DNA of 57,181 nucleotides from a virus (IMGVR_UViG_3300015360_000051:1-57181), one strand, 5' to 3'. Positions 37,164 through 56,747 are shown, counted from the stretch's first letter. The notes: generated by a model from the sequence alone, not told the origin. Numbers and translations are program-made.

Positions 37164-40100
37164 GTGGCTGACCAGAAACCTAAAAAATCTACGGGAATGC
37201 TCATCGATGGCGTTTTCGCATCCGAAGCTATTGACAGCTCAGGCGAAATCGTATCAATAGAAGGCATGGACGTGACCACCATAGAAGAAGGGTGGGGTGT
37301 AGCAAATTATGAACACCTAGACGAAAAAGGTGGCTACGGCAGGGAAATTGTTGGCAAGATAGTAAGTGTCAAGAAAATTTTCACCGAAGGCGATTGCGAA
37401 AACGACCGTCAGAAGGAATACTTCAACAAAATCAAGAAGATTCCTTACCTATATGGCATAGTCAGACTCTATGACGGAGCAGGCCACGAAGGAGCCAAGG
37501 CATTAGCGGCTCAAATCCGAGACGCCGTCGCCAACGACGAGGAAATTATCGTACGATATTCGATTGAGGGGTCGACTACAAAAAAGACCGACAATCGAAT
37601 CGAAGAATCAATCGCAAAAAAAGTTGCGATGACTTTAAGACCATGTAACAAAACCGCTATTTCCGGTCTCATGGACGACCCGAACGCTCCGGACGGGTTC
37701 GACACTGTGCATAAGGCGGAGAGGCAGTTCATCGACCCGGAATTTTCCCCTCTAGGGGCCTCGACCGCGCTGGCATGCAACCCCTGTATGGACCGACAGG
37801 CCGAGGCTCAGATGCGCCTCCTAGGGTCATTCGCGAAGCTCAAGGCTCTCGCCAAGACTACTACCGCCGGGAACTATGACGTTGCCCCTTCTGCTCTTAC
37901 AGGCGGTGCAGCCCTACAGGTCGAAGACCTAGGGAGAACCGTAAGGAACACCGCCAAAGCCGTACTGAGAGACTACGGGTGGGGCACCTTCGATAGAGAT
38001 AAGTTCAAAAAATTTGCGAAATCAAAGTTACCGGAGATGTCCGATGACTTTATCAACCATTTCACTGACGTAGCATCAGATTTTGCCATCCGGAAGGCTA
38101 TCCAGAAGGGCGAGCTGTCGAGGACCTTTGAACCACTTCAGAAAAAACTCGCAACGGAACCTAAAGGCGGTGAGGCAGCCGCAGCACCGGTAGTCGGTAC
38201 TATTAGAGGCAAAAAAATTCGCCCCAATGTCGGGATGGTAGGTTCGTCCTTTGACTCGAAAAAGGGGGTGCTGCATACGGCTATAGGTAGCTTTAAGGCC
38301 TACCTTCCCCATAACGACGGCCCTGACTCCGCCGAAAACTACAATAACATCCTCAAGAGTCCAAAAGTGGAAGACGCTTTAGACCATGCTATGTCGAATT
38401 GGTCAAAGGTTCATCGCCTCAATAAGGCAGGCAAGTTACCACCCGAAGTATTGATGCACGCCGTCATGTTTTCCCAACTGTCTCCCAACAGGGCGGTACC
38501 GGTTCAGGAAATACAGTTTGCTCGAATGGTTGACGCGATGAAGGCATCTGGCCTAGACCCGCGCAAAAAGGGTTTCGAGGCAATCCTACCCAAAATGCGG
38601 GAACTCGACCATCCTACCAACGCCCCCGACACCGGGAGGGAGGCCATCGAATCGAACCTCGCCTACTATATCGGCGGCAAAAAAGGCGTCGAATATGGCA
38701 CTAGCGGCGAAAAGCTAGGACTTAGGTCCAAGACGAATAGATATCCGGGAGAGTTACATTCAGTCGAATCGTTAATCGGCACAAGCATCTCAAACATGTC
38801 TAAATATCATGGACTCCACGACGGTCTAGTAGATATCCTCCACAGACACCGTACTGACTCGGTAGGGGCGGTCGGAGAGCTGCTGGAAAATAAGAGACTA
38901 TCCAGAAACTGGTTGATGACGAATAAAAAAAATGGAGGTGACCCATCGGTCAACCCGCATTCGTCTGTTCCTGGGCTAGCCGCCAAAACAGGCCTGTATA
39001 CCTGGGGTATGATTGGTGGCGGCAACTCGGTAGTCCCGGATACGCACTTCATCCGGAACATGTTCGGACTTGACGTAACCAAGGATGCGAAAACGCTTTT
39101 CTATTTGAAAAGTAATATTTTGCAATCTGACGGAATCAAGCCACTGACTGAATACAACCATTGGTTCGCTAAGAATCATCCATCGGTCCAGTACACACTG
39201 AACCACCCCAAATGGGGCAGCACTTTTGAAAAGCCGGAAGACGCCATCTTTCCAGCATTCTGGCGCCATTGGTTAGCTATTGCTCCCCATGAGAAGTCAT
39301 TAGGGATGCGAAGCTACTCTAATCAACAGGGGACAAACCACGCTCCATTTTGGGAGGCTATTGCCCCGCACGTAGACCCGTTGTTGAAGGCCACCGGCCA
39401 AGGAGATTCCTCAATCCCCTTCAGGACCGCCATTCTACATCAACAGTACGTTAAGGACTACGGCGAGGTCCCCGGGATGTTCCTGTACTACCACCATATA
39501 GTACCCAAGCTACTAGAAGCGGCCAAGGTTAGAGAGAGAATTGGCGACGACCTAAAATTTCTCGCCAAGGCTAGTAAAATCGAGGCTGGGCTAGTAAACC
39601 TGCGTAAGGCTATCTCGGATGCTATTGAACCGTGGCAGCCTCCTCAAGTTCACAACGTCGAAATTAGCATCAAGGGCCGGAACCACCCTGCTGGGCGATA
39701 CCTCATCCACAACGGGAGACTCCACCACCTGGAGGATTATCACGGGATTCTGAGTTCCTTCTTGCCCGAAGGCGACCTCGACGTTGAGGCGGTTAGTCGG
39801 CTAAATGGCCTACAGTGGTCATCCAAACTTCATACTACTCCTCATTATCCTGTCATTGCACCACCTCCTCAGGCCGGTCAGGCTCAGGCTCAGGCTCCAT
39901 CGTACCGGGTGTCCTCTCTATCTGCTCAGGAGCCTAGACCTCCATCAGTATTCGAGTACCACCGCGTCGGAATGTCTCAGCCTCATATCGTGGAGGTAGG
40001 CGGAGGCGGAGCATCACTAGATGGTCGGAAAATCTCTGACCCCGAACTCCAGTTGATTTTGAGAAATGCCGAAAACGGTATTGCAAAAATAAAATACAAG

Positions 40101-40817
40101 CAGTCTCCCGCAGGGCTAAAAAAGGCCGACGACGAGACCCCCGTAATGTCTCCCGACGAGGTAATGCAGCATATCCAGGAGGCAGTCGCTCAAGGACATG
40201 TATCCGCAGATGTTGAGCGAGCCTATCGTCAGCATATTTATGGCGACGCGATGGTTTCAGGAGTCGGTAACAAGTACGCCTATACACAATTCCGGAACCA
40301 AAACAAGCCCGGCGTTTGGCTCTCAATGGACGCAAACAGCTTCAAGCACGTCAACGACAGTCACGGACACGAAGCGGGTGACCACGCAATCAAAGCGGTC
40401 GGAGGCGCGATTAAAAATGCAGCGGCAGTGGTCGGGACTGGTAAGGTGTTTCGCCCGGGTGGCGACGAATTCGCCGCCTATTTCCCCTCCCACGAGGAGG
40501 CATCTAGATTCATGAGGCACGCGACTACCCATTTAGACGCCGTACCGCCCGTCGCCGGGACGCACAAACTGTCCATGAGTTTTGGGGTTGGTGCCGATTT
40601 CCCAACTGCTGACAAAGCACTGTTGCTGGCCAAGGAGCAGAAAAAAGACCCTTTGTCGGGCAGGTTGATGTATCATCCTACCAATACTCCCCATCTAGCG
40701 CATAGCCTGATGCCAGGAAATGAAGGACCGGTGGGCCTACACAGTAAGGCGCCGCATCCAGCAACTATCCCGACCGGGGCAGGGGCAGGGGCAGGGGCAC
40801 CGCCCACAAATCCTTGA
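37164..40817 (+). CDS. Prohead protease fused to capsid-N-arm mimic, HhH glycosylase-like domain and GGDEF domain
   Basis: DSSGE, NYEH, YSIEG protease motifs; PGLAAKT...VPDTHFIR; DANSFKHVND.HGHEAGD...RPGGDEF. Confidence 0.88.
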   Translation: MADQKPKKSTGMLIDGVFASEAIDSSGEIVSIEGMDVTTIEEGWGVANYEHLDEKGGYGREIVGKIVSVKKIFTEGDCENDRQKEYFNKIKKIPYLYGIVRLYDGAGHEGAKALAAQIRDAVANDEEIIVRYSIEGSTTKKTDNRIEESIAKKVAMTLRPCNKTAISGLMDDPNAPDGFDTVHKAERQFIDPEFSPLGASTALACNPCMDRQAEAQMRLLGSFAKLKALAKTTTAGNYDVAPSALTGGAALQVEDLGRTVRNTAKAVLRDYGWGTFDRDKFKKFAKSKLPEMSDDFINHFTDVASDFAIRKAIQKGELSRTFEPLQKKLATEPKGGEAAAAPVVGTIRGKKIRPNVGMVGSSFDSKKGVLHTAIGSFKAYLPHNDGPDSAENYNNILKSPKVEDALDHAMSNWSKVHRLNKAGKLPPEVLMHAVMFSQLSPNRAVPVQEIQFARMVDAMKASGLDPRKKGFEAILPKMRELDHPTNAPDTGREAIESNLAYYIGGKKGVEYGTSGEKLGLRSKTNRYPGELHSVESLIGTSISNMSKYHGLHDGLVDILHRHRTDSVGAVGELLENKRLSRNWLMTNKKNGGDPSVNPHSSVPGLAAKTGLYTWGMIGGGNSVVPDTHFIRNMFGLDVTKDAKTLFYLKSNILQSDGIKPLTEYNHWFAKNHPSVQYTLNHPKWGSTFEKPEDAIFPAFWRHWLAIAPHEKSLGMRSYSNQQGTNHAPFWEAIAPHVDPLLKATGQGDSSIPFRTAILHQQYVKDYGEVPGMFLYYHHIVPKLLEAAKVRERIGDDLKFLAKASKIEAGLVNLRKAISDAIEPWQPPQVHNVEISIKGRNHPAGRYLIHNGRLHHLEDYHGILSSFLPEGDLDVEAVSRLNGLQWSSKLHTTPHYPVIAPPPQAGQAQAQAPSYRVSSLSAQEPRPPSVFEYHRVGMSQPHIVEVGGGGASLDGRKISDPELQLILRNAENGIAKIKYKQSPAGLKKADDETPVMSPDEVMQHIQEAVAQGHVSADVERAYRQHIYGDAMVSGVGNKYAYTQFRNQNKPGVWLSMDANSFKHVNDSHGHEAGDHAIKAVGGAIKNAAAVVGTGKVFRPGGDEFAAYFPSHEEASRFMRHATTHLDAVPPVAGTHKLSMSFGVGADFPTADKALLLAKEQKKDPLSGRLMYHPTNTPHLAHSLMPGNEGPVGLHSKAPHPATIPTGAGAGAGAPPTNP

Positions 40818-41415: not shown

Positions 41416-41457
41416 GTGCTCTGGACACTATCACGGCATTTTAATAAATGCAAGTGT

Positions 41458-41790: not shown

Positions 41791-41930
41791 CAGTTTAAAG
41801 ATTGACGCTCTTTTGTATCGACAGAAAATCAATCTAATAGGAAGTAAATGGGCGCTTTTTTAGTGCTCTTCGCAGCACCTTCAAAAAAAGGACGCTGCCT
41901 CAAAATCAGATAAATGGAGAATTAGAAAAA

Positions 41931-42398
41931 ATGCCAACTACATACAAAGCCATTGCGAGCCTCCGCGAATTGGTAGACCTGCTTAAGAAATCTTGCACCA
42001 CGCTTCCGGTCATCACCGAGTCGTTCGACTCGAACGAAGACCCCGTCGTCACCCTTAGTGCCGATGCTACACCCGCTGCTGGAGAAAAAGTGGTTGTGCT
42101 ACGGATGAAGGCAATCGGCGCAATCGGCGCCAGAGACATTTTTGGTAACGTGGCTCAACAGTTTAGCCACCATGTTATTCAGATTTGTACAGAGGCGAAC
42201 CCGGCCGCTGGCGCAGGGGCAGACATCCTCACTCCCGCTGAAATCCTCCCGATTGTTGTCGAGTGCGGCCGAAAAGGGTCCTTCGTCGAGTGGTATACGA
42301 CGGCTGCTACAGTGATTCCGTCGACTGCGGCGATGGTTGCTGGAAACCTCCGTTCGACCTGGAGAGACCTGTACTGGAACGTCAGCAAGGCTGGTTAA
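41931..42398 (+). CDS. Putative head-associated structural protein
   Basis: GGAG SD; first gene of the scaffold/MCP unit. Confidence 0.65.
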   Translation: MPTTYKAIASLRELVDLLKKSCTTLPVITESFDSNEDPVVTLSADATPAAGEKVVVLRMKAIGAIGARDIFGNVAQQFSHHVIQICTEANPAAGAGADILTPAEILPIVVECGRKGSFVEWYTTAATVIPSTAAMVAGNLRSTWRDLYWNVSKAG

Positions 42399-42435
42399 TC
42401 CTTGGTTTCTCCCTGCAAAGAAAGGTTATGAAACC

Positions 42436-43371
42436 ATGAAAAAATTGTCAAAATCGCAAATCTCAAAGATTTTGGAGGAGGTCACTAATGACGTGGCCGA
42501 ACTTCTGAAATCAGAGGCTGAAGAGGCTGTTGCGCTCAGTAAAGCAGACCCCGGGAAAGAGACGGCTGCTGAAGCTACCCCCTCCGGTAGCTCGACAGAG
42601 GAGTCTTCGGCTCCTCCGCCTGAAATGTCCGCTAGCCCTCCGGCTGGCGAACCTGATGGTGGTGGTCTAGAAGGCGGTCCAGAAGGTAGTCCAGAAGGCA
42701 GTCCAGAAGGTAGTCCAGAAGGTAGTCCAGAAGGCGGTCCAGAAGGCGGTCCAGAAGGCGGTCCAGAAGGTGCAGACGGCGGTCAGGAAATGTCGCCCGA
42801 AGCTCTCCAGGGCGAATATTCGCAACTGCCCATCGAAGAACTCAAGATGCATTTTTTGGCGGCGAAAGCCGCTCTCGAAGCTGCATTGCAGGGTGGTGGT
42901 GGTGGTGCAGGGGCTCCAGAAGCTTCGGCTCCTCCGGGTGCTCCTCCGGGACCTCCGGGTGCTCCTCCGGGTGCTCCTCCGGGTGCTCCTCCGGTTCCAG
43001 GCACGGACAAGCTGGAACTCAAAGAGGTTAAAAACTCTTTGGCGGACCTCAAGAAAAACGTATCAGCTAAGGACGCAGAAATCCTGGAGTTGCGGAACAA
43101 ACTCGACCAGTTAGTTACTGGATTTGAGGGAATTCTGACTCGTCAACAGGTTTTGCGCAAGTCGGCAAGAGATTTGTCCTCATTCGCACCTGCGAATGGT
43201 GATGATACTGTCGTCGACATCTCTAATCTGTCCAAAAAAGAAATCGTAGCGAAGCTTAGTGAGGTCACTGCTTCGACCAACAAACTAACTAAATCAGACC
43301 GTGACCTCATCAACCGCTTCGTGGTATCCGATTCAGTGCCCGCTGAGTCCGTAGCCAAGTTCTGCAAGTAA
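42436..43371 (+). CDS. Probable scaffold protein
   Basis: Acidic Pro/Gly-rich low complexity plus coiled coil, many LxKS/A motifs, directly before MCP. Confidence 0.7.
   Translation: MKKLSKSQISKILEEVTNDVAELLKSEAEEAVALSKADPGKETAAEATPSGSSTEESSAPPPEMSASPPAGEPDGGGLEGGPEGSPEGSPEGSPEGSPEGGPEGGPEGGPEGADGGQEMSPEALQGEYSQLPIEELKMHFLAAKAALEAALQGGGGGAGAPEASAPPGAPPGPPGAPPGAPPGAPPVPGTDKLELKEVKNSLADLKKNVSAKDAEILELRNKLDQLVTGFEGILTRQQVLRKSARDLSSFAPANGDDTVVDISNLSKKEIVAKLSEVTASTNKLTKSDRDLINRFVVSDSVPAESVAKFCK
42669..42770 (+). repeat. 12-bp in-frame tandem repeat (EG[G/S]P)n
   Basis: ccagaaggyrgt about x8; second 12-bp (PPGA)n run at about 42930-42992. Confidence 0.9.
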
Positions 43372-43389: not shown

Positions 43390-44787
43390 ATGGAAACAGT
43401 AGATAAAATCAACTCCCTTATCAAGGCGATGGAGGCTGGCAATTACGATGCCGCTCCTTCCACTCTGACCCAGGGTGGAGCCCTCCAAATCGAGGACCTG
43501 AGCCCCGTCATGAACAACGTCACGTTCGAGGAAGCCAGCCTGAAGCTCCAGAAGAAAATGACCGTTAAATCGTGCAAGTCAACCCTCGCACAGTTTGACC
43601 GTCAGCTTTCGTACGGTAACTTCGGGGGGTCGGCCCAGCTCGAAGGTAACGTTGGTCAAGAAGACACGAGTGACTTCGTTCGTTCGACCGTCCCGATGGC
43701 ATTCTACAGCTCGACTCGTCGGGTTACGATTGCGTCGACGATGGTGGCTACGGTCGATGGCATTTCGAGCGACGACCGCGCCGCCGCTGACGCTGCGAAG
43801 AAATTGGCTGGAGACATCGAATTCGACCTCTTTCGCGGGTTGGATGATTTCTCGAACGCTGGTGTATTCGATGGCAATCCTCTCGTTGTTCCAAACCTCC
43901 CGAATATTCACGGTGTGGGCCTGCAAATCCGTCAGTCGGATTTTCAAGTCAATTCGCGTGACCTCATGTTTGCGGAGTATGGTTCGGATGACTCGGTCAT
44001 CATCTCCGGTGGTGGTGTCGCACTGACTCAGGACAAGGTTGAAGACTCGGCCGTTCGTTCGGCCCTGAATTTCGGCACTGCTGAATCGCTTCTGATTGAC
44101 CCGATTTCGTTGTCTGCGTACAACAAAATCTCGTTTGGTAAGGAACGTATCATCCTGGCTGGTTCGCCTCAAGAGGCCACTGGCGCCGAGCTACGGAAAC
44201 AGTGGGTTTCGGTTGGCACTGTCAACGTAGAGTCCAGCAATTTCCTTCGTGGTAAAAGCAAGCCCGCCCGCACTCGACCGAACGGCCCTGCCGCTCCTTC
44301 GATTACTGGCGCTGCTAGCGGTGGTGGTGCGTTGGGTGCCGGTACGTACGTATACTACGTATCGGGCTTCAATGAGGTTGGTGAATCGGCTGGTTCGACT
44401 TCTATCGCGGTCGTCGTCTCTGCTAACGAAAAGGTCACACTCACAATCACGCATAGCGGCGCAGGCACAACTACGAGAGGCTTCAACGTCTATCGTTCGG
44501 GTGCTGGTGGCACGGCTGTGTCAGCTAAGTTCATTGGTCGCGGTACGACCACTGCTAACTCGGCAACCACCGATTTCGTGGACCTTGGCAACAAGGTTCC
44601 CGGATTCGTTACTGGATACCTAATCCAGAAGGACACGATGGAAATGAAGGAGTTGGCCCCGTACAGCCGTCTAAAGCTGGGCGTTGCCGACCTTTCGACT
44701 CCTGAGGCTCACTTCCGCTTTACTTGTCTTGCGATGCTTCAGCCCCGCAAGAACGTAATTTTGGATAACCTGAAGGGGACGTTCTAA
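43390..44787 (+). CDS. Major capsid protein (SPO1/Twort-like, with Ig/FN3-like insertion)
   Basis: LIK|AMEAG...GGALQIEDL N-terminus as in Herelleviridae-type MCPs; TYVYYV...N..GES...FNVYRS...FVD insertion; strong terminator after. Confidence 0.9.
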   Translation: METVDKINSLIKAMEAGNYDAAPSTLTQGGALQIEDLSPVMNNVTFEEASLKLQKKMTVKSCKSTLAQFDRQLSYGNFGGSAQLEGNVGQEDTSDFVRSTVPMAFYSSTRRVTIASTMVATVDGISSDDRAAADAAKKLAGDIEFDLFRGLDDFSNAGVFDGNPLVVPNLPNIHGVGLQIRQSDFQVNSRDLMFAEYGSDDSVIISGGGVALTQDKVEDSAVRSALNFGTAESLLIDPISLSAYNKISFGKERIILAGSPQEATGAELRKQWVSVGTVNVESSNFLRGKSKPARTRPNGPAAPSITGAASGGGALGAGTYVYYVSGFNEVGESAGSTSIAVVVSANEKVTLTITHSGAGTTTRGFNVYRSGAGGTAVSAKFIGRGTTTANSATTDFVDLGNKVPGFVTGYLIQKDTMEMKELAPYSRLKLGVADLSTPEAHFRFTCLAMLQPRKNVILDNLKGTF

Positions 44788-45228: not shown

Positions 45229-45522
45229 TCAACGGCGGCTATCGTTCACCCACCACTGCTTTTCCCCACTTGCCCATTCGACGGCGGGCAGGCCACCATC
45301 ACGGTGACGCTGGCCACCCACCCACCATTCCTTGCCGCCGTCTGCGTATTCGACGGCGGGAAGGTCACCATCACGATGGAGAACACCGTCCACCCACCAC
45401 GACCTGTCCCCGTCTGCCCATTCGACGGCAGGCAACCCCCCTTCACGATGTAGGCGTCCCTCTTTGTTACGCCAACGGCTGGTTCCGTCTTGGACTGTCT
45501 TGTTTCCTGTGTTGTTGTCCAT
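45229..45522 (-). CDS. HRDGGLPA repeat protein
   Basis: MDNNTGNKTV start, 3 repeats. Confidence 0.85.
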   Translation of the reverse strand: MDNNTGNKTVQDGTSRWRNKEGRLHREGGLPAVEWADGDRSWWVDGVLHRDGDLPAVEYADGGKEWWVGGQRHRDGGLPAVEWASGEKQWWVNDSRR

Positions 45523-45540
45523 TTTTACTCAACCTGGTGG

Positions 45541-45849
45541 TTATTCGCCGTCCCGGACACGGAGTTTTCCGTACACGTACCACTCCTTGCGCCCGCTTGC
45601 CCACTCGACAGCAGGCAAGCCTCCGTCGCGGTGTTGCTGGCCGTCCACCCACCATTCCTTGCCGCTTGCCCGTTCAACGGCAGGCAACCCTCCACCACGG
45701 TGGAGGCGTCCGTTTACGTACCACTCTTTGGTACCGTCTGCCTGTTCGAGGGCGGGCAATCCACCATCACGGTGGAGAAGACCTTGTTTGTTGAGCCAGA
45801 AGACGGTTCTGTCTGCTTCAACTACTTTTCTTTCTTCGTTGTTGTCCAT
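45541..45849 (-). CDS. HRDGGLPA repeat protein
   Basis: 3 repeats; leaderless promoter. Confidence 0.85.
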   Translation of the reverse strand: MDNNEERKVVEADRTVFWLNKQGLLHRDGGLPALEQADGTKEWYVNGRLHRGGGLPAVERASGKEWWVDGQQHRDGGLPAVEWASGRKEWYVYGKLRVRDGE

Positions 45850-45915
45850 TTATTTAATCTACAGGGAATTGGATTGAATGTCAATCAATTAATTCACCTA
45901 GACAGTGGTAGGTGA
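45839..45915 (-). promoter_or_regulatory. 77-bp stem-loop + promoter cassette, copy 2
   Basis: Identical to 45143-45219. Confidence 0.85.
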
Positions 45916-45918
45916 GTC

Positions 45919-46293
45919 TCATCTACGGTGGTGGACACCGTTTGTCCACCATTCCTTATGACTCGTTATCCGCTCAACGGCAGGCAGGCCGCCACCACGA
46001 TGAAGGCGGTCGTTTATCCACCACTCTTTGGTACCGTCCACTTGCTCAATGGCAGGCAATCCACCGTCACGATGGCGAACACCGTTTGTCCACCACTCCC
46101 TATCTCCGTCTTTCCACTCGATGGCAGGCAAGTCTTTATCTCGATGGAGACTCCCCTTTTTATACCAAAACCTATCCCCATTTACCCACTCGACAGCGGG
46201 CAAGTCTCCTTCGCGATGGATAAGACCTTTTTCGTTATGCCAACGGACAGTTCCGTCTCGGTCGACTGTCTTGTTTCCTGTGTCGTTGTCCAT
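45919..46293 (-). CDS. HRDGGLPA repeat protein
   Basis: MDNDTGNKTV start, 4 repeats; 5' region near-identical to that of 45229-45522. Confidence 0.85.
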   Translation of the reverse strand: MDNDTGNKTVDRDGTVRWHNEKGLIHREGDLPAVEWVNGDRFWYKKGSLHRDKDLPAIEWKDGDREWWTNGVRHRDGGLPAIEQVDGTKEWWINDRLHRGGGLPAVERITSHKEWWTNGVHHRR

Positions 46294-46315
46294 TTTTTAC
46301 TCAACCTGGTGGTTA

Positions 46316-46642
46316 TTATTCTGAACTGGTAAGGTGTCTTCCGTACCTGTACCACTCTTTACGTCCGTCCGCTCGCACAACGGCAGGCAATCCACCATCA
46401 CGATGGCGCTCGTTGTCCACCCACCAGCTCTTGCTCCCGTCTATGTGTTCGACGGCAGGCAAGCCGCCATCGCGGTGTTGCTTCCCATTCGCGTGCCACT
46501 GCTTGCTTCCGTCTCTCCATTCGATGGAAGGGCGACCTCCCTCACTGTGGAGTTTTCCCTCTTCATTAAAATAACGAATATTTCCTTTTTTGTCTACTAC
46601 TTTATTCCTAGAGTCTACTACTTTGCTCCCGATATCATCCAT
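46316..46642 (-). CDS. HRDGGLPA repeat protein
   Basis: MDDI start 6 nt after a -10 box; 3 repeats. Confidence 0.85.
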   Translation of the reverse strand: MDDIGSKVVDSRNKVVDKKGNIRYFNEEGKLHSEGGRPSIEWRDGSKQWHANGKQHRDGGLPAVEHIDGSKSWWVDNERHRDGGLPAVVRADGRKEWYRYGRHLTSSE

Positions 46643-46683
46643 CACAGCATCCTACAAGGAATTGGATTAAATGTCAATGAATT
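46630..46683 (-). promoter_or_regulatory. 54-bp promoter + start cassette, copy A
   Basis: TTGACA-17-TAGGAT-6-ATGGATGATATCG; identical to 47081-47134. Confidence 0.85.
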
Positions 46684-46703
46684 CAGTGTCCATCTATTTG
46701 TCT

Positions 46704-47093
46704 CTACTCAGAGACTTCTTTTCCGTCCACCCACCACTCCTTGAGTCCATTAGACCACTCAACGGCAGGCAGTCCGCCGCCACGATGACGCTGGCCGTTT
46801 TTCCACCAAGACGCATCGCTATTTTCGTTCCAACCGGCGGGCTCGTCCCAAACGGCGGGCTCGTCGCCGTCACGGTGGAGACGACCGTTTACGTGCCACT
46901 CCTTATGTCCGTCTAACAACGAGACGGCTGGCAAGTCGCCGTCACGGTGGAGCTGACCGTTTTTATACCATTGCTTGCCTCCGTCTCTCCACTCGATGGC
47001 GGGACGACCTCCCTCACGGTGGAGTTTCCCGTCTTGGTTAAAATAACGAGTATTCCCTATAGGGTCTACTACTTTGTTTTCGATATCATCCAT
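46704..47093 (-). CDS. HRDGGLPA repeat protein
   Basis: MDDI start, 4 repeats. Confidence 0.85.
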   Translation of the reverse strand: MDDIENKVVDPIGNTRYFNQDGKLHREGGRPAIEWRDGGKQWYKNGQLHRDGDLPAVSLLDGHKEWHVNGRLHRDGDEPAVWDEPAGWNENSDASWWKNGQRHRGGGLPAVEWSNGLKEWWVDGKEVSE

Positions 47094-47134
47094 CACAGCA
47101 TCCTACAAGGAATTGGATTAAATGTCAATGAATT
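47081..47134 (-). promoter_or_regulatory. 54-bp promoter + start cassette, copy B
   Basis: Identical to 46630-46683. Confidence 0.85.
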
Positions 47135-47137
47135 AAC

Positions 47138-47605
47138 TCACCCGTCTCTGCTGACCCATGTATTGCCGCAAGTCTGAGAATGACCCCCAAACCCCTGAGC
47201 GTTTCCGATGGTCCATTCGTTTTCGGATATCTTGGTAGTGCCAGAAACTCTAGAGCTGTTAAAAATCTGAGCGTTCCCGTAAACCCGAGCACTGCCGCAG
47301 ACCCTAGCCTCACCATACACCCAGGCGTTGCCGTAAATCGCTGAAGACCCAAAAATTAAAGTATCCCCATAAATCTGTGCACTACCAAAAATCTGAGCAT
47401 TCTCGGAGACCCAGGCGTTGCCAAAAATCTGAGCACGCTCGTAGACCCAGACGTTTTGGCAGACCCTGGCGTTGCCAAAAATCTGAGAATGAGGCCCTAC
47501 CCAGACAGAGTCTGAAACGAAAGCGGTATCGGCCACCCAACCTTTGCCGTTAGGATGCTGGTGAATAGATACTGGCCCATTGCCATCTTGGAAGTCTTTT
47601 TTCAT
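47138..47605 (-). CDS. Hexapeptide-repeat left-handed beta-helix protein
   Basis: Tandem [GE][NS]A[QWR][IV][FY] hexapeptides. Confidence 0.85.
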   Translation of the reverse strand: MKKDFQDGNGPVSIHQHPNGKGWVADTAFVSDSVWVGPHSQIFGNARVCQNVWVYERAQIFGNAWVSENAQIFGSAQIYGDTLIFGSSAIYGNAWVYGEARVCGSARVYGNAQIFNSSRVSGTTKISENEWTIGNAQGFGGHSQTCGNTWVSRDG

Positions 47606-49282: not shown

Positions 49283-49696
49283 ATGCTCCTTTCCGCTCGA
49301 CTATTAGACGATGTTTGCGAAGTAAATGCTTACAAATACGTACCCGAAATCGAAGTCACCGCTAGAGACTCTTTCGATATATATCTCCAGTTAATTGACA
49401 AGTCTCAGAACGTGGCCAGATTGGGGTTCAATCCTTCGGGGTTGCGCCACATGCCTCTGGCTGGGGCTACGCTGACAGCCACGGTCGTCAACGTGAATCC
49501 GGCAGTGGCGTTTTCCCGTGTCGCTACCCAGCCTTTCCCCCGAGATACGTCGATTTGGCGATTGTCTTTTTTGACCACCGACCCCATATCGGCAGGGACT
49601 GTTACTCTGTCTTTTGCTCTGACTGAGGGGGCCGTGGTCCGTCGGTTCACCTTACTCGCAGCCCTGAGGGTGAGTGGCTCTCTGGAGGCCTGCTAA
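49283..49696 (+). CDS. Putative virion protein (beta-sandwich)
   Basis: Beta-rich; begins a late-looking unit after CAATCTT. Confidence 0.65.
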   Translation: MLLSARLLDDVCEVNAYKYVPEIEVTARDSFDIYLQLIDKSQNVARLGFNPSGLRHMPLAGATLTATVVNVNPAVAFSRVATQPFPRDTSIWRLSFLTTDPISAGTVTLSFALTEGAVVRRFTLLAALRVSGSLEAC

Positions 49697-50541
49697 TGCC
49701 TTCTGACTACGCAAAAAGCAAGGAAGGGCTAGGAGGTCAGTTACTAGACGGGGTCATTGAGACGACCTGGCAGGACTCTGGGCCGTTGGTTACCGCCGCC
49801 GAAGTCAAGCGGATGCACCTGTTCGGCATCCCATTGGTGTCCGCAATTGTTGACCCCTATACTGGGATGCCGGAGTTCATTGGTCCGGAGACCCTTTCTG
49901 AGTATATAGTCGAGGCTGTCTCAATCGTAGAGACGGAAACCGGGTTGGAAATTTTCCCCCGGCAACGAGACGAGCGGCACCCATATGACCAAAAAGCCCA
50001 AGAATCGTTTGGCTATACGGTTTTACGCCACCGCCCTGTACAGTCTATTGAAAAGCTAGCTGTTACCTCTACGGACGGTGTCGACGTGTGGCAAGTACCC
50101 ACAGCCTGGATTGATACAGGCTACCTCCATCAGGGGCAAATCAATCTGATCCCGTTCGCGATTGCTGGGCAAGGAGGCTCTACAGTGCCTGTTACTGGCC
50201 CGGTCGGGATGGGGCTACTCCCGTCACTGTTTCGATTCCACTGGGTCCCAGGGATTTGGACGGTTACGTACACTACCGGCTTCAAAAATGGCTGTATCCC
50301 AAAAATCGTAAACCACCTGATTGGGGTAGTTGCGTCGATGGAAATTCTCTCGATGTTGGCAACCACCTACTCGAAGAGCCAGTCTTCCTCTCTATCAATT
50401 GACGGCATGTCTCAGTCGGTTTCTACACCGGGGCCTCAACTGTTCGACACTCGGCTAATGGTCCTAGGGGAGAAGCGGAAGTGGCTGGTCAATAAACTCA
50501 AACGACTATTTGGACTAGGATTCTGGTCCGACAACGTGTAA
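49696..50541 (+). CDS. Putative head completion/neck protein
   Basis: LFGIPL, AVSIVE, HRPVQSIEKL, VTYTTGF, SLSIDGMSQS pattern typical of head-tail adaptors. Confidence 0.7.
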   Translation: MPSDYAKSKEGLGGQLLDGVIETTWQDSGPLVTAAEVKRMHLFGIPLVSAIVDPYTGMPEFIGPETLSEYIVEAVSIVETETGLEIFPRQRDERHPYDQKAQESFGYTVLRHRPVQSIEKLAVTSTDGVDVWQVPTAWIDTGYLHQGQINLIPFAIAGQGGSTVPVTGPVGMGLLPSLFRFHWVPGIWTVTYTTGFKNGCIPKIVNHLIGVVASMEILSMLATTYSKSQSSSLSIDGMSQSVSTPGPQLFDTRLMVLGEKRKWLVNKLKRLFGLGFWSDNV

Positions 50542-50543
50542 CA

Positions 50544-53500
50544 ATGGCAACACCTGAGGGCGAAGCTACACATTCTGCTGAGGTTGCCCTAATCCAGGTA
50601 ACCAACGCACAGGGGCATCTGCTCCTGGGCAAACGTAACGATACCGGTAAATGGACGTTGCCTGGTGGTCACCTAGAGCACGGAGAAAGTCCAGAGAGAG
50701 GGGCTATTAGGGAGCTGTTCGAGGAGACCGGGTTGAAGCCTGAGTCTCTAACCTATGCCAGGAAGTTCAGCCCGCACGATGGGTTAACTATTCACTGTTT
50801 CACAGCTCTCTGTCTCGGAGACCCTCATGGGGACAATGACCCAGACAACGAATGCGACAAATGGGAATGGGTGGACGTTAGTGACGGCATTCCTGAGGAT
50901 ATGTGGGAGAACCTAGCGGGGCCCAAAAATGGAAATGTGGTTAAGCAGGTGTTCGACCAGAGTTTGACCAAAATGGACATTAAAGAGGTACACGATTACA
51001 ATTCGTCAATAGACGACCACGTTCCTCCGCCAACTTCCACTAATTTTCCCAGGCCTGTAAAGGATAATCCCCATCAGCATCAAATTCCTGCCAAACCTAT
51101 GGCTAAGGTCGTCCACAAGACTTCGCTAGCACAACTGAATTTATACGACCGGGAATTTCAGGGATATATCCCCGCTCCCAGCCTTGCTATCGTCCATCAG
51201 GACAAGGATTTTGACTCGTTCGGTGACGTGACCCTCATCGCTCATCCTAGGATGGTCGACCCTAGGGTAACGAACACCCATGTCTATTCGGGGGACTCCT
51301 ACTCTCCACGGAGCGGCAAGCCGATATGGCGCTCTGGACTCGAAGCTAATAATAGCTTTGCGTCAGAGGTTCACAACGACCCGACTGCTAGCGATACAGA
51401 CCGAGGAACTAGTAGATATTCAAAAGAATCGTTCGCGAGAGAGTTTGGGGAGTATTTTAATTCTCACCATTCGGTCTCCGTCTTCCACCAAGGACTATTA
51501 GCTGTCCCTGGTTCCTCCAGCGGCGATGTACCAAGAATGGTGGTCGATAGGTTCTATGCCGAACACCCCCTCGTGGGTTTTGGAGAGAGAGGACTAAATC
51601 ACCAATACTTATTTGATAACTGGCTCTCTCAGAAAATGAAGGCTAGCGGATGGCAGCGAAAATTTTCATCCTCGTCGAGTGACGGAGCCGTTGAAGACTC
51701 TGACCCCGAGACAATCCTACGCAGAATGAATAGACGCCCCACGTTCGGCGGAGAAAGTCACCTAACCCACGCCTCCGCCCGCAAGAACCCAACAATGCAA
51801 GGCATCTTGTTGGAGACAAAGAAGTTTCGCTCCTTGAACGAGATAAAGGCACATACCGGTCAATTAATTGGGCATTCCGGTATTGAGGATAATGAAGAAA
51901 AAATAAACGAACAAACACAAACTCTGAGAGATTCTCTAACTGCTGACGCCTCCAAAAGGGGCAGCACTGTCACTGACGAAGACATTGACCATGTCGTCAG
52001 AGGGGTCCACTCAGGCAAATATCGTACCGCCAAAAAAGCAGTTCAGGCGATTCTGGGAGGGGATGTAGAATCAAAATTCCCAGAAGTCAGCGGCCGAATT
52101 GAAGAGATTATCAAGCTCTCTACTAAGAGAGGTCAAGAATATTTTGAGGCCAAGCCCAGGCGCTTGGTTCATTTGTCCGAGTTTCACACCGCCGTTGTCC
52201 CTCCGACCATATTTCCGGAACAGCTCGCGACCCTCAAAAGGTACGGGCTCAATGTCGTCAAACAGGACGCAAACCCCAGCCAGGTAACCAATATAGCAAG
52301 AGACCACAACTTGCTGCTGTCAGAGCATAGCATAGACGAACTCCAGTTCGCCGAACTTCAAAAATCTGATGACATGGATATTGAGTGGCTAGCGAAAGCA
52401 ATGACCACGGAAGACGAAGTGTCGACCTTGCTCCAGCACCACGACCCGATGGAACGCAGGCTCGCGCTGCGGCTCAATACGGCCACCCCTTCCCACATCC
52501 GCCAAGGGGCCTTCGACGCCGATGAAGAAGTCTGGAAGGAGGCACTCGCCCATCCAGACTCCGCAATCGCTAAGAGGGCTGTGCTTGCCTGTACCTCGAA
52601 CGACAAAGGGGAGGACCTGTGGCCCCAACAGCAGCACTTACTAGCAGATGACAACCTGCCAGCCGAGGCCCTGGATACCCTATACTCGACCATCCTACAT
52701 GATAACGACATCGGAGATAGTTCGAGGAAGGCGCGACTAAATGAGATAGCGGGTCACCCAAACTTCGATTTCCCTACAGAGAACCCCGACCAGTCCCTCG
52801 CAAAGCATTGGGGGCACGACCTGATTGAAGGTGCGCATAATATTCACCCTCCTACGGATTCTCTCGCCCCTAATCAGGCTCATAACATTGACCGTCATGC
52901 AGCCTACAAAAACGATTTCGATTCCCACCAACATCTAGTACCGGTCAAAAATGACAAGTTAGCACAGCTAGGCGAAAACAAAAAAGTCATTCACAAGACG
53001 AAGGTTTCGAAATATATGGTCAAGCCGTGGACTGCTGGAGAGAGCATCTCCCAACAGGTATTCCACGCCGCCGGAATGGGACACATCCATCAAAAAAGTT
53101 TCACCACCGAATACGTGGACAAAAAAACGGGTAAGGGTACCCAGGCCACGGTCATCAAGATAGAGCCTTTTCACTCAACAATCGCCAGCCTGAATGGGTG
53201 GGGCGGAACTGGACGAGTTAAACACCCCCTCCCAGACGAGCCGAGGCACGACCCGGATGATTTCATTAAAGGAAACATCTTAGACGCCGCTCTAGGACAG
53301 AATGACCGACATTTAAACAATATCATGATAGATGATATCTCGGGGAAGCCTCTATATATAGATAGCGACGCGTGCGGGAAGTCCATCTATGGGAATTGGG
53401 GGGAATTTAAGGACTCAGTAGAGTTTTCTAATTTTCTCAGCCACAGTAGAAGCCATCTCGACGGACACCTAGCAAAACAATTACTGGGAGACAGAAGCGA

Positions 53501-56500
53501 GGAAGCGTTTCGCCGAAAGGTCCACAGACTGGTACAAACGTGGTGGCCTACAGTGTCAGAGCCAATTAAAGCGAAGTTGGGCGAACTAGGCGACCGAGGC
53601 CGCAGTTCTGTCCTAGAGAATATCCACAACAACGTAAGCCAACTTGACAGACTTGTCCGTGGAAAAAGCGAAGACGGCTCAGAATCTGTTAACGACGAAA
53701 ACGGCGCCCGAAAGGAATGGCGCAACGTCGAAGGTCTCATTCATCGTGATGGTGACTTGCCTGCTATTATTCGCCAAAATGGCGAGAATGCCTATTACAA
53801 AAACGGTAAACGCCACCGTGACGGTGACCTTCCTGCTATCTTGGGCGGCCCTGACGGAGGGGTAACGTATTACAAAAACGGCTTCCGCCATCGTGACGGC
53901 GACCAGCCAGCCCACAAAGACAAAGATGCGGAAGCGCATTACCGAGATGGCAAGCTCCATCGTGACGGAGGCCTGCCTGCCGTTGTGCACGCCAACGGGC
54001 GCAAGGAGTGGTACGAAGGCGGGCTTCATCACCGTGACGGAGACCTGCCCGCTATCGAATACGAAGACGGAGGTAAGGAATACCTATATCGTGGAGTGAG
54101 AGGCCGCAACGGCGAGGACAAGCCATCCATTATCCGTAATGGAACTGAAACCTACTATATGGATGACCTTATTCATCGCATGAATGACTTGCCCTCCGTA
54201 ATAGGCCCTGGGCGGGAGGAATATTTTCGACTTGGTCGTCCCCACCGTGACGGCGGCCTGCCTGCCGTCGTCGTGGACAAACCAGGAGGGGTCAAAGAAC
54301 ATCATTATTTTCTGAATGGAGTCCCGTACCGCCCGCTCGGACTACCCACCTATGATGACGGAGCAGGATATCAGGAGTGGCGGAGTGCGGACGGGCTTCT
54401 CCACCGTCTCGATGGCCCCGCTGTAATCAAGGGCGCCGTTGGAGAACCTTACGAGGAGCATTATTACAAGGATGGCAAGCTCCATCGTGAGGATGGCCCC
54501 GCTATATTCAGACGCGACGGGGGTCACGAATTCTACGAGAAAGGCGTCCAGGTATTTCAAACTGCGGATGGATACAGAACTCTCAGTAGTGGGCTAGGAG
54601 GCATCAAGCTGAAAGAGCTACGAAACAAATCCGGGGACCTCCACAGCAAAAACGACCTTCCGGCCTATATTAAGATAAGGGAGGGCGAGAGAGGGAAGGA
54701 AAGAGTTATTAGAAAAGAGTGGCACAAAGAAGGGAAGGTCCATCGTGATGGAGACCTGCCCGCCATCGAGTTGTCAGACGGAACCAAGTTTTGGTACAAA
54801 GACGGCCTCCCCCATCGTGACGGTGGATTGCCTGCCATCGAGAGACTGGACGGCAGTAAAGAATGGCACGTAAACGGTAAGCGCCATCGTGATAACGACT
54901 TGCCCGCCATCGAACAGGCAGACGGGAGCAAGGAATGGTTTGTAAATGGTAAGCGCCATCGTGACGGTGATTTGCCTGCCGTTGAATGGCAGGACGGGCA
55001 TAAGGCGTGGTATGAAAACGGTCAGCCCCACCGTGACGGCGGCCTGCCTGCGGTCGAGTGGGCAGACGGGCATAAGGAATGGAAGGTAAACGGTTATCTC
55101 CATCGTGACGGAGACCTGCCTGCCATCGAACGGCCAGACGGGGCCAGGCAGTGGTACGTACGCGGGAAACGCCATCGTGACAACGACTTGCCCGCAATCG
55201 AATGGCCAGACGGAACCAGGTCGTGGTGGGTGGACGGCCAGCATTACCGTGACGGAGGACTACCCACTATTGAACGCGCAGGAATACCAGGAGTTAAAAA
55301 AGCCCTCGAAAGCGGCTGGGCGGATAACCTCCACAGCAAACCAGACCAGATGCCCACCGTTTTTAGGGCTAATGATGCTGTAAAAAAATACAAACAATTT
55401 GAAGGAACCCACAAGACGTTTGAGACTCACGAACCCGTACAGCCGTCTAAAGCTCTTTTCCAGAAGCATGTCCAAGACTCTCCGCATCTAATACCAACCC
55501 CTCCCCCTACATCCAATATGGGAGGGGTTGAGAATAAACACGTTCACGAATTCGAGGACGATTCAGGGGCATACCATAGATTCCTAATTAAAGGGTACCA
55601 CAGCAACTACGCCATGCACAGCGGGTTTGGGGAGCTAATGTCACAGGACGCCTACCACGCCGGAAACATTGGACACCTGCATCAAAAATCCTTCGCCACC
55701 ACTGACGACCAAGGCAATCCGGCATTGGTAATTCATATGGACCATAGCAGGAATGTAGGGGTGGATGATTGGCCCGAACATGCGGAAGACTATCATAAAA
55801 TCGCAATGATGGACTTTTTGTTGCAAAATGGTGACAGACATGGTGATAATATAATGTCTCCCCCTCTGGCGATAGACAATGCTGCGTCGAGTTACATGGA
55901 CTTTTACGGGGGGAACGTACCTCCTACCCAAGAAGAACTGTGGAAGGATTCAGACGCCCTAGAAAGGATTCCAAACAACCTAGGGACCAAACACTCTCCT
56001 GGAATTAAGGAGTGGTGGAATCAAAATAAGGTAGCCATTAAGGATTCAGTTCATAGGAATTTCCGAAAAGTGCTCCCCGACGACGATGGAGACGTAAATC
56101 ATGCGCACAGTCGGTTAGATGCCCGATTTGATGACCTGGACAGTTCGGTTAACTTTAAGTTCGGTCAACACACCCGCGTTTCCGAAGGAGTCACAAACAG
56201 CCTAAACGAGCACGGCCTCGCGCACAGTTTTGACGACCAGCCCGCCCTGATAATGAGGGGCGGCGGTCTCAAAATCTGGATGAAAAATGGGGTCAAACAT
56301 CGTGACGGTGGCTTGCCTGCATATGTTGAGGACGACGGATACGAAATCCACTACAAAGACGGCAAAGTCCATCGTGACGGAGGCCTGCCCGCCATCGAAT
56401 ACGCAGACGGTGGTAAGGAGTGGCACGTAAACGGAAAAATCCACCGCGATAACGGACTGCCCGCCGTCGAACGGGCGGACGGGACCAAGGAGTGGTGGGA

Positions 56501-56747
56501 AAATGGTAAGCGCCACCGTTACGACGGCCTGCCTGCCGTTGTGCGAGCGGACGGACACAAGGAATGGCACTGGAACGGGCACCTGCATCGTAACAACGAC
56601 TTGCCCGCAATCGAATGGACAAGCGGAGGTCGGTCGTATTACAAGGACGGGAAACTCCATCGAGACGGTGGCCAGCCCGCCAAGGAACAACCAAACGGTA
56701 ACCATGAGTGGTGGGTGGACGGAAAAAACTATCCCAAACCACAGTGA
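50544..56747 (+). CDS. 2067-aa polyvalent protein: Nudix, ART-like, HEAT-like, kinase, repeats, kinase, repeats
   Basis: Nudix box GGHLEHGESPERGAIRELFEETG; kinases DRHLNN..ID and DRHGDN..IDN; two HRDGGLPA blocks. Confidence 0.9.
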   Translation: MATPEGEATHSAEVALIQVTNAQGHLLLGKRNDTGKWTLPGGHLEHGESPERGAIRELFEETGLKPESLTYARKFSPHDGLTIHCFTALCLGDPHGDNDPDNECDKWEWVDVSDGIPEDMWENLAGPKNGNVVKQVFDQSLTKMDIKEVHDYNSSIDDHVPPPTSTNFPRPVKDNPHQHQIPAKPMAKVVHKTSLAQLNLYDREFQGYIPAPSLAIVHQDKDFDSFGDVTLIAHPRMVDPRVTNTHVYSGDSYSPRSGKPIWRSGLEANNSFASEVHNDPTASDTDRGTSRYSKESFAREFGEYFNSHHSVSVFHQGLLAVPGSSSGDVPRMVVDRFYAEHPLVGFGERGLNHQYLFDNWLSQKMKASGWQRKFSSSSSDGAVEDSDPETILRRMNRRPTFGGESHLTHASARKNPTMQGILLETKKFRSLNEIKAHTGQLIGHSGIEDNEEKINEQTQTLRDSLTADASKRGSTVTDEDIDHVVRGVHSGKYRTAKKAVQAILGGDVESKFPEVSGRIEEIIKLSTKRGQEYFEAKPRRLVHLSEFHTAVVPPTIFPEQLATLKRYGLNVVKQDANPSQVTNIARDHNLLLSEHSIDELQFAELQKSDDMDIEWLAKAMTTEDEVSTLLQHHDPMERRLALRLNTATPSHIRQGAFDADEEVWKEALAHPDSAIAKRAVLACTSNDKGEDLWPQQQHLLADDNLPAEALDTLYSTILHDNDIGDSSRKARLNEIAGHPNFDFPTENPDQSLAKHWGHDLIEGAHNIHPPTDSLAPNQAHNIDRHAAYKNDFDSHQHLVPVKNDKLAQLGENKKVIHKTKVSKYMVKPWTAGESISQQVFHAAGMGHIHQKSFTTEYVDKKTGKGTQATVIKIEPFHSTIASLNGWGGTGRVKHPLPDEPRHDPDDFIKGNILDAALGQNDRHLNNIMIDDISGKPLYIDSDACGKSIYGNWGEFKDSVEFSNFLSHSRSHLDGHLAKQLLGDRSEEAFRRKVHRLVQTWWPTVSEPIKAKLGELGDRGRSSVLENIHNNVSQLDRLVRGKSEDGSESVNDENGARKEWRNVEGLIHRDGDLPAIIRQNGENAYYKNGKRHRDGDLPAILGGPDGGVTYYKNGFRHRDGDQPAHKDKDAEAHYRDGKLHRDGGLPAVVHANGRKEWYEGGLHHRDGDLPAIEYEDGGKEYLYRGVRGRNGEDKPSIIRNGTETYYMDDLIHRMNDLPSVIGPGREEYFRLGRPHRDGGLPAVVVDKPGGVKEHHYFLNGVPYRPLGLPTYDDGAGYQEWRSADGLLHRLDGPAVIKGAVGEPYEEHYYKDGKLHREDGPAIFRRDGGHEFYEKGVQVFQTADGYRTLSSGLGGIKLKELRNKSGDLHSKNDLPAYIKIREGERGKERVIRKEWHKEGKVHRDGDLPAIELSDGTKFWYKDGLPHRDGGLPAIERLDGSKEWHVNGKRHRDNDLPAIEQADGSKEWFVNGKRHRDGDLPAVEWQDGHKAWYENGQPHRDGGLPAVEWADGHKEWKVNGYLHRDGDLPAIERPDGARQWYVRGKRHRDNDLPAIEWPDGTRSWWVDGQHYRDGGLPTIERAGIPGVKKALESGWADNLHSKPDQMPTVFRANDAVKKYKQFEGTHKTFETHEPVQPSKALFQKHVQDSPHLIPTPPPTSNMGGVENKHVHEFEDDSGAYHRFLIKGYHSNYAMHSGFGELMSQDAYHAGNIGHLHQKSFATTDDQGNPALVIHMDHSRNVGVDDWPEHAEDYHKIAMMDFLLQNGDRHGDNIMSPPLAIDNAASSYMDFYGGNVPPTQEELWKDSDALERIPNNLGTKHSPGIKEWWNQNKVAIKDSVHRNFRKVLPDDDGDVNHAHSRLDARFDDLDSSVNFKFGQHTRVSEGVTNSLNEHGLAHSFDDQPALIMRGGGLKIWMKNGVKHRDGGLPAYVEDDGYEIHYKDGKVHRDGGLPAIEYADGGKEWHVNGKIHRDNGLPAVERADGTKEWWENGKRHRYDGLPAVVRADGHKEWHWNGHLHRNNDLPAIEWTSGGRSYYKDGKLHRDGGQPAKEQPNGNHEWWVDGKNYPKPQ

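Follow-up and report, generated by a model that had tools for sequence, protein, structure and literature searches.

The stretch of DNA analyzed here (the window; IMGVR_UViG_3300015360_000051:1-57181, 57,181 nucleotides (nt)) is an IMG/VR viral contig of 57 kb, estimated to be 35% complete, and is a fragment of an Mx1-like myxophage; its major capsid protein (MCP) shares 55.7% identity with its counterpart in Myxococcus phage Mx1 (a myovirus of 169.6 kb), and its gene order is also as in Mx1. Upstream of the capsid gene it encodes a 1217-amino-acid (aa) protein that is probably a polyprotein led by a Lys-cutting head protease, which would cut the polyprotein in its own linkers and so might provide the head with an enzyme cargo. 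An initial annotation of the window had proposed that this protein and a second giant protein, of 2067 aa, are punctuated by L-x-K-[A/S]-like motifs at which the prohead protease releases injectable effectors.

Window-only statistics are too weak to decide on the motif, and tests were therefore made at the level of the phage family, for which 54 related loci, many on contigs of 150-172 kb, were obtained by searching viral contigs with the MCP. When the open reading frame (ORF) just upstream of the MCP gene at each related locus is taken as the scaffold (44 distinct sequences), phi-x-K-[AST], phi being hydrophobic, occurs 351 times compared with 67.2 expected from composition, with 4-14 copies per protein. 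Around the scaffold lysines, P3 tends to be L, M or I (~3-fold up), P1' S or A, and P2' E (2.3-fold up), and the excess is a property of lysine, the observed/expected ratio (O/E) by P1 residue being 5.22 for K, 1.29 for R and 0.22 for E, with E, D, Q and N all ≤0.88. By contrast, the MCPs have the motif within their first 30 aa in 45 of 45 distinct sequences (residues ~10-13, as L-x-K-A-L-E-A-G), and the 45 MCP bodies are depleted in it, with 11 motifs versus 52.3 expected (estimates of the expectation span 52-64; O/E 0.21, i.e. a K-specific ~5-fold depletion; control ratios are 0.85-1.71 for R, E, D and Q and 0.55 for N). Enrichment in the protein to be destroyed together with depletion in the protein to survive is as a cut motif predicts. 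Scaffolds are also the strongest outliers among 686 ORFs of ≥100 aa from four complete relatives and the window. An underpowered count of motifs sharing an alignment column, made over 30 orthogroups of these genomes, found seven conserved phi-x-K-[AST] sites in 15,978 columns, two of them in the protease polyprotein. The scaffold enrichment, MCP-body depletion and K-specificity thus identify the motif of the initial annotation as a real signature of the phage family, and its predicted role as a Lys-specific cut motif is well supported.

Within the window, every motif instance named in that annotation is present at its given place, i.e. SLIK↓AMEAG (↓ marks the predicted cut) at aa 9-17 of the MCP; VHKA182, LAKT229, IRKA309, LLKA740, LAKA800, LRKA813 and LKKA985 in the 1217-aa protein; LTKM141, LQKS605, LAKA616, LAKH752 and VKKA1584 in the 2067-aa protein; LSKS33 and LTKS639 in the portal; and LSKS37, LLKS56, LSKA67, LRKS273 and LTKS317 in the scaffold. 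Three of these (LAKT, LTKM and LAKH) fall outside the annotation's own [AS] rule, and the 1217-aa protein has two further motifs, ILKS396 and LNKA419, that it did not list. With 2000 shuffles per protein, the strict motif [LVI]xK[AS] was found more often than expected in the 1217-aa protein (8 observed, 2.8 expected, p 0.007), the scaffold (5 and 0.9, p 0.0015) and the portal (4 and 1.0, p 0.018), and once in the MCP (0.9 expected). The window-only signal is weak overall, and is absent for the 2067-aa protein.

The sites in the capsid and portal proteins are themselves conserved. In the MCP, residues L10, K12, E15, G17, P23, L26, G29 and L32 are invariant in 44 sequences. Both portal sites put forward in the initial annotation are conserved across the aligned portals, the N-terminal one as L-[SV]-K-S in four of four, after a variable N-terminal stretch, and the C-terminal one as L-[TS]-K-[SG]-E, also in four of four (three strict), after a variable Gln-rich stretch.

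On the strength of the aligned relatives, an invariant His/Ser pair and the gene position, we accept a putative prohead (head-maturation) serine protease in the first ~180 residues of the 1217-aa protein. When the first ~185 residues encoded at 40 loci are aligned, all 40 sequences have His51 and Ser133 (full-protein residue numbers are the alignment numbers + 9), Ser133 being the serine of YSIEG in the initial annotation, and 36 of the 40 aligned relatives match phrog_1028 'head maturation protease', with a best E of 3.4e-13. The genes run in the order portal, MuF-like protein, RNA ligase, protease polyprotein, p155, scaffold, MCP; the position of the protease in this order is shared with Mx1, where the homologue of the polyprotein is annotated as 'putative prohead protease'. 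In the AlphaFold model the N-terminal domain is confident and β-rich; the GGDEF domain filled the Foldseek and VIA-align lists obtained with the 1200-residue model, so that the lack of a protease in these lists says nothing either way.

Behind the protease domain there is a copy, of roughly 30 residues, of the MCP N-terminus, residues 5-44 of the MCP matching residues ~224-263 of the 1217-aa protein with 53% identity (E 7e-8). With a profile of the MCP N-terminus, nearly every related locus proves to encode a protease protein with this element, which follows the protease domain at a variable distance and retains the lysine and the subsequent A, S or T; K231 is present in 118 of 118 homologues among the matches listed, always as phi-x-K-[ATS]. 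Conservation continues for ~25 residues past the predicted cut, far beyond what a protease cleft needs, which suggests a docking element plus a cut site, and the low AlphaFold confidence in this region (predicted local distance difference test (pLDDT) <50 at 231-233 and 235-256) is what a peptide that becomes ordered only when bound would show. Complex prediction with MCP aa 45-465 and polyprotein aa 229-330 gave a score of 0.00 in two runs without controls, which is evidence neither for nor against binding.

The remaining predicted cut sites lie in or near linkers, at positions that the family conserves. A homologue search with the 1217-aa protein found 187 proteins of 669-2130 aa, and the counts given here rest on the 120 listed, many of them full length. 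These have 846 motifs compared with 431.6 expected, 692 of them within 13 hot spots (reference positions ~180, 218, 229, 286, 315, 400, 417, 429, 650, 743, 802, 816 and 983), the strongest of which overlap indel-rich, low-occupancy alignment segments; all nine window motif sites of the protein fall within the 13. An AlphaFold2 model of aa 1-1200 (86-row alignment, mean pLDDT 84.1) has pLDDT<50 at 183-191, 193-209, 231-233, 235-256, 316-339, 744-749, 793-805, 807-823, 904-923 and 981-993. Motif lysines 184, 231, 802, 815 and 987 are inside these segments and lysines 311 and 742 within five residues of one, so that five of the nine motif lysines lie in 12.4% of the chain (P 0.0024), or seven with a five-residue pad (P 0.0002); the unpadded segments hold only 12 of the 91 lysines in total. 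The hot spots and the confidence profile thus bear out the earlier suggestion that the motifs sit near domain boundaries, the motif lysines being family-conserved and in linkers between folded modules.

Individual linkers and the modules between them repay closer description. At the border of the conserved helical module that follows the mimic, K-[AST] is found in 12 of 12 homologues, with the variable linker 316-339 thereafter. The 'glycosylase-like' middle domain of the initial annotation is supported by VIA-align, which superposes model residues 380-726 on 3n0u_A, an 8-oxoguanine DNA glycosylase (Z 13.8, root-mean-square deviation 3.2, 207/209 aligned); this is a single structural match, and its Z is just above the caution level for helical folds such as this one. 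Pfam gave no match for the domain, DUF7178 being an Atlas lead. Residues G604, G618, D626, H628 and R631 are nearly invariant, and G604, G618, D626 and H628 are reminiscent of endonuclease III, with its Gly-rich hairpin and its 'DTH' Asp. In the linker that follows, the LLKA-site lysine (K742 in the window, 743 in the reference row) is kept in 87 of 100, and K815 in 112 of 119, homologues among the matches listed, 110 with L at P3. The GGDEF module, which lies beyond small β domains, was found by Pfam and by fold search as had been proposed, with diguanylate cyclases as the top Foldseek and VIA-align matches (Z up to 18.0) and an intact signature; the LKKA985 hot spot before it has 54 motifs among the 120 listed homologues. 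Relatives split the gene ~10 aa after K815, and in Mx1 a separate cyclase gene starts at the LKKA985 linker; that relatives break the gene into two or three near K815 and K987 independently marks these places as domain borders. The C-terminal GGDEF domain is replaced by a PI3_PI4-kinase domain in at least 11 of the matches listed, one listed homologue adds an ADP-ribosyltransferase domain (PF03496, ADPrib_exo_Tox), and two carry intein domains. The predicted protease, mimic and linker frame is constant while the predicted effector end varies. Self-processing of the protease polyprotein is well supported, albeit by inference.

On this basis, a Lys-specific head protease would cut phi-x-K↓[A/S/T], often with E at P2'. 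The scaffold would be cut at many sites and so cleared from the head, the MCP would lose a 12-residue propeptide at K12↓A13, and the portal would be trimmed at both ends. The MCP-like element, common to both proteins, would serve for docking as well as cleavage and so recruit the polyprotein to the head during assembly. Cuts in the linkers near K184, K231, K311, K742, K802/K815 and K987 would release the GGDEF cyclase, the glycosylase-like domain and the small β domains as folded proteins in their own right. Freed modules of this size would be too large to exit the shell, and so would remain beside the DNA, with which they could pass into the host. The 2067-aa protein belongs to the polyvalent effectors, which are predicted to accompany phage DNA, and has at most two or three plausible cuts (K607/K618 and K1586). 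The motif statistics, the conservation, the placing of the linkers and the identities of the domains are observed, and each cleavage event, the packaging in the head and the injection are inferred from sequence.

In the 2067-aa protein, the Nudix domain and two PI3/PI4-kinase-like regions named in the initial annotation were detected, the kinase-like regions both with a DRHxxN loop and the Nudix domain with an intact Nudix box. Its 'ART-like' domain was not: Pfam detects PBECR5 there, and ART-PolyVal in homologues only. Homologues (P0122-P0138) have PBECR5, ART-PolyVal, MuF-C and LPD domains (PF18814, PF18760, PF18819 and others), and these domains, together with the PBECR5/kinase/Nudix set of the window, place the protein among the polyvalent proteins of Iyer et al. 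2017. Module limits were taken from BLAST high-scoring segment pairs (HSPs) to homologues. The related-loci search found no relatives of the middle region, and a search of five relatives only patchy, weak matches; conservation of the protein is poor even in close relatives. Modelled with AlphaFold, aa 1-1060 have a mean pLDDT of 46.2 and not even the Nudix domain folds, which is too poor a result for mapping linkers. A close relationship of the kinase-like regions to the protease-fused kinases was considered and rejected, there being one 23-residue match and only the Pfam family in common. In the closest relative (MCP 74% identical), the Nudix domain is a stand-alone 135-aa gene (L004 16060-16467) followed by an unrelated ORF, which indicates that the Nudix fusion of the window is recent.

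A number of observations weigh against the proposed processing scheme. The window's own protease domain has no phrog_1028 match at E≤0.1 and no Pfam or PHROG family match; a PDB profile search with the protease alignment returned a single, chance-level match (E 0.63), and hhalign to HK97 gp4 is weak (prob 15.9%, E 0.0016), the Ser-containing strand being set on the gp4 'GFSV' strand in that match. The sequences counted in the family tests are related, and so are not independent events and have P values that overstate independence; the direction of the effects and their K-specificity are clear. The giant proteins of relatives have motif O/E values from 0.98 to 2.3. The comparison of head with other genes that the initial annotation had proposed gave 23 motifs in 5173 aa versus 36 in 11305 aa, a difference per residue that does not reach significance (Fisher p 0.21). 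A site in p155, LKKS18, was rejected as a conserved site, being kept in only 2 of 25 sequences. In the 1217-aa protein, K398 and K421 are in confident helices. The split-off C-terminal products of relatives have no N-terminal motif or propeptide, which means that cleavage is not needed to make the module and leaves their route into the head unexplained. The Mx1 genome announcement mentions neither protease nor capsid, virion or mass spectrometry. The Lys maturation site of A511/phage K-type capsid proteins, on which the initial annotation drew, is not mentioned in the available portion of PMC3601020.

Some of these observations fit other explanations, of which one is that the cuts only dismantle and clear the protease after assembly, as happens in other phages, with the glycosylase-like and GGDEF modules acting in the infected cell, during assembly or earlier, and being neither packaged nor injected. 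That relatives encode the C-terminal modules as separate genes lacking an N-terminal tag or motif agrees with such a role, as does the Mx1 cyclase, which as a gene of its own indicates that modules can work unattached to the protease. We regard it as unlikely, given that ~35 listed homologues keep the whole fusion at 97-100% coverage, that the effector end is swapped with the protease, mimic and linker frame unchanged, and that the cut sites are at domain borders rather than through domains, leaving folded products. Less probable again, and very unlikely, is that phi-x-K-[AST] has nothing to do with cutting and reflects helical, Lys/Ala/Ser/Glu-rich scaffold and linker sequence, with the conserved MCP N-terminus serving only as a structural N-arm. 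The motif is 1.22-fold over composition across all 686 ORFs, K, E, A and S abound in the helical scaffolds, and several sites of the 1217-aa protein are drawn as helix in the model; however, composition is already accounted for in the scaffold excess, which is K-specific, in the MCP body the motif is depleted instead, a copy of the MCP N-terminal element follows the protease domain in related protease proteins, and S or A at a heptad 'd' position would misfit a coiled coil.

For the 2067-aa protein the balance differs, and its cleavage is close to evenly poised. The alternative, only slightly less probable than a cut protein, is that it is an uncut polyvalent protein, packaged whole or absent from the head, in which the named sites are products of chance and fusion junctions. 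The motif enrichment anticipated for it is absent (3 strict motifs versus 2.8 expected, p 0.54; 5 versus 3.95 for the wide motif), only three of the five named sites are strict, one wide-motif site, VHKT190, is inside the conserved PBECR5 core, and the stand-alone Nudix of the nearest relative ends at the LTKM position, so that LTKM is a fusion junction. There is also a precedent in the phage N4 virion RNA polymerase, which is packaged unprocessed (PMC5512222, in the portion available). Against this, a site matrix built from the MCP and protease sites of relatives, excluding window sequences, scores K618 second-highest and K1586 fifth-highest of the 1113 window lysines (the MCP site is first and K231 third), and the context of K1586 is similar to KALEAG, the MCP site of the family. 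All three strict sites are in the ~8% of the protein that separates HSP-defined modules, an estimate that, like the borders, was made after the sites were known.

A reading that extends the self-cut polyprotein further is that the first ~50 residues of the MCP are a portable tag for capsid entry and release in Mx1-like phages, that copies of it dock enzymes into the growing shell as a capsid N-arm does, that the linkers are cut, and that the head carries a changeable enzyme kit which enters the host before gene expression; we would put this forward only tentatively. The kit would then consist of nucleotide cyclase, DNA glycosylase-like, kinase and ADP-ribosyltransferase activities, with the head protease doubling as cargo carrier, a possibility that we consider somewhat doubtful. 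A 337-aa protein of relative G006, in which a 50-residue, 72%-identical copy of MCP aa 8-57 stands between unrelated sequence, fits a portable tag.

This tagged protein is encoded far from the head module (contig 16702-17715 (-), in L072), as is a 161-aa protein of relative G007 with a weaker MCP N-terminal copy (contig 10517-11002 (+), in L081); both are possible head cargo. A motif-rich family found beside the giant polyvalent gene of relatives (G009 77530-78855 (+), G007 34005-34874 (-) and G006 63419-64510 (-)) has a scaffold-like richness of motifs, e.g. nine in 441 aa in G009, and a conserved L-x-K-A-A-E near residue 22; the window has no homologue of it. The G009 member has an insert, aa 207-322, that appears GNAT-like by eye and is homologous to part of the neighboring giant protein.

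Comparison with characterized systems helps to define which aspects are new. The T4 prohead protease motif is L-x-E. The scheme proposed here is similar to that of T4 gp21, a head protease with a short hydrophobic-x-charged motif that degrades the scaffold, trims the capsid protein and processes injected head proteins; it is different in that P1 is Lys rather than Glu, in that the cargo candidates are fused to the protease, and in that the tag is a copy of the MCP N-terminus. T4 internal proteins have a capsid-targeting sequence (PMC9024508, in the portion available). Neither giant protein of the window has an N-terminal capsid-targeting sequence of the T4 type, and the split-off C-terminal modules of relatives start without the motif; the analogy with T4 in function stands. 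In phage P1 the large anti-defence enzyme DarB is sent into the head by a short transferable signal (PMC9024508, same portion); the P1 signal is not reported in that portion as a copy of the MCP N-terminus, and DarB is not fused to a protease.

Duda, Oh and Hendrix are said to have described, in 2013, a capsid-targeting C-terminal part of the HK97 gp4 protease, downstream of its catalytic domain. The likeness to HK97 is that the protease would be carried into the prohead by a non-catalytic downstream part and that the MCP would be cut at its N-terminus; unlike in HK97, there would be enzyme cargo behind the protease, and the gp4 similarity of the window domain is weak. HK97 itself matures its capsid protein by an N-terminal cut (PMC9024508, as far as available). 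In SPN3US, gp245 acts at an AXE motif, and mass spectrometry revealed cleavage of many head and ejection proteins, of the portal and of the protease itself (PMC10052503, in the part available). The present case is similar to such phiKZ-like phages in that many head proteins would be cut at one short motif, portal trimming included; it is unlike them in motif and protease lineage, in that their substrates are separate genes, and in being known from sequence alone.

Polyvalent proteins are giant multi-enzyme chains (with PBECR, ART, GGDEF and kinase domains and Nudix neighbors) predicted to be delivered with DNA and sometimes self-processed, in which an assemblin-like peptidase is reported only at C-termini (PMC5512222, in the portion available). 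Both giant proteins of the window resemble these, with several unrelated enzyme domains each (NUDIX, PBECR5 and kinases in the 2067-aa protein; protease, glycosylase-like and GGDEF in the 1217-aa protein); by contrast with the proteins of Iyer et al. 2017, the protease leads the polyprotein, and the Lys motif and the MCP N-terminus mimic are undescribed in the available portion of that work (PMC5512222).

Motif-directed processing of head and ejected proteins (T4, phiKZ-like phages), targeting signals (T4, P1) and catalogued polyvalent proteins are thus already known. What is new is a predicted Lys-specific cut signature readable from sequence in a large family of uncultured myxophages of ~150-170 kb, a protease-led polyprotein with a last domain exchanged among cyclase, kinase and ADP-ribosyltransferase, and a copy of the MCP N-terminus that seems to be a shared docking and cut element. 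No prior literature was found on a GGDEF-ended protease-led polyprotein, on the family's Lys motif or on the MCP mimic in a search of the main texts of mostly open papers, and a 2026 myxophage preprint mentions none of protease, diguanylate, polyvalent, Nudix or kinase. Ordinary virion proteomics, which uses trypsin, does not reveal cuts after lysine, and similar processing may therefore have been missed elsewhere. Mx1 grows on Myxococcus xanthus, which makes the idea directly testable, and the tag, if portable, would be a candidate handle for loading proteins into phage heads.

Table 1. Genes, predicted domains and candidate cut sites of the window (nt positions from the first letter; residue numbers refer to the protein named)
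Feature	Position	Strand	Basis or remark
Terminase	29353-31326		
Portal	32328..34400	+	portal PHROGs
Portal LSKS33	32424-32435	+	
Portal LTKS639	34242-34253	+	
MuF-like head protein	34400-35206		
RNA ligase	35997-37127	+	PF09414, phrog_968
1217-aa protease polyprotein	37164..40817	+	one continuous ORF
Putative head-maturation protease domain, aa 10-180	37191..37703	+	invariant His/Ser, relatives' phrog_1028 matches
Catalytic candidate His51	37314-37316	+	
Catalytic candidate Ser133	37560-37562	+	
MCP N-terminus mimic, aa 229-256	37848..37931	+	predicted cut K231↓T232
Conserved helical module, aa 257-317	37932..38114	+	ends at IRKA309; helices 257-271, 278-288, 294-317
HhH-GPD DNA-glycosylase-like domain, aa ~380-726	38301..39341	+	VIA-align 3n0u_A
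Linker with LLKA740, LAKA800, LRKA813	39381..39632	+	pLDDT<50 at 744-749, 793-805, 807-823
Linker aa 981-993, LKKA985	40104..40142	+	pLDDT<50; just before GGDEF
GGDEF nucleotide-cyclase domain	40143..40703	+	PF00990, E 2.3e-14, 53.9 bits versus 23.8 cut-off
155-aa protein (p155)	41931-42398		
Scaffold	42436..43371	+	ORF opens 42337; likely start M34; directly upstream of MCP
MCP	43390..44787	+	phrog_752
MCP predicted 12-aa propeptide	43390-43425	+	predicted cut K12↓A13
Cluster of small repeat proteins	between MCP and adaptor-like gene	-	
Adaptor-like protein	49696-50541		
2067-aa protein	50544..56747	+	
Nudix	aa 12-118 of 2067-aa protein		Pfam NUDIX
PBECR5-containing module	aa ~146-594 of 2067-aa protein		Pfam PBECR5, E 2.1e-7, above Pfam cut-off
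Candidate cut sites LQK↓S (K607), LAK↓A (K618)	52356..52400	+	module border
Module	aa 623-736 of 2067-aa protein		BLAST segment ends
Kinase-like 1	aa ~749-1013 of 2067-aa protein		Pfam PI3_PI4_kinase
MORN-like repeats	aa 1043-1581 of 2067-aa protein		24-residue repeat
Candidate cut site VKK↓ALESG (K1586)	55293..55313	+	between MORN-like array and kinase-like 2
Kinase-like 2	aa ~1657-1864 of 2067-aa protein		Pfam PI3_PI4_kinase
MORN-like repeats	aa 1880-2065 of 2067-aa protein		24-residue repeat

The surroundings of these genes have some further features. Within the head module, the MuF-like gene is separated from that of the protease polyprotein by the RNA ligase gene; Mx1 has four small minus-strand genes at this position. 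The middle of the scaffold gene has two 12-nt tandem arrays (42664-42770 and 42928-42995), coding for PEGS/PEGG and PPGA low-complexity repeats. At least 12 small ORFs (72-224 aa) consist nearly entirely of the same 24-residue MORN-like repeat as is present in the 2067-aa protein; they are at 236-4276 (+), 20876-21166 (+), 22185-22613 (+) and 45229-47096 (-), those on the plus strand being 50-68% identical to the repeat of the 2067-aa protein and five forming, with a period of 72 nt, the minus-strand cluster between the MCP and the tail-side genes. A 155-aa ORF at 47138-47605 (-) has short 'NAWV-G-A-I-G'-type repeats that are hexapeptide- or bactofilin-like in appearance. The sole ARAGORN call in the window, a 100-nt tRNA-Val(tac) at 44316-44415 (+), falls within the coding sequence of the MCP and is probably spurious.

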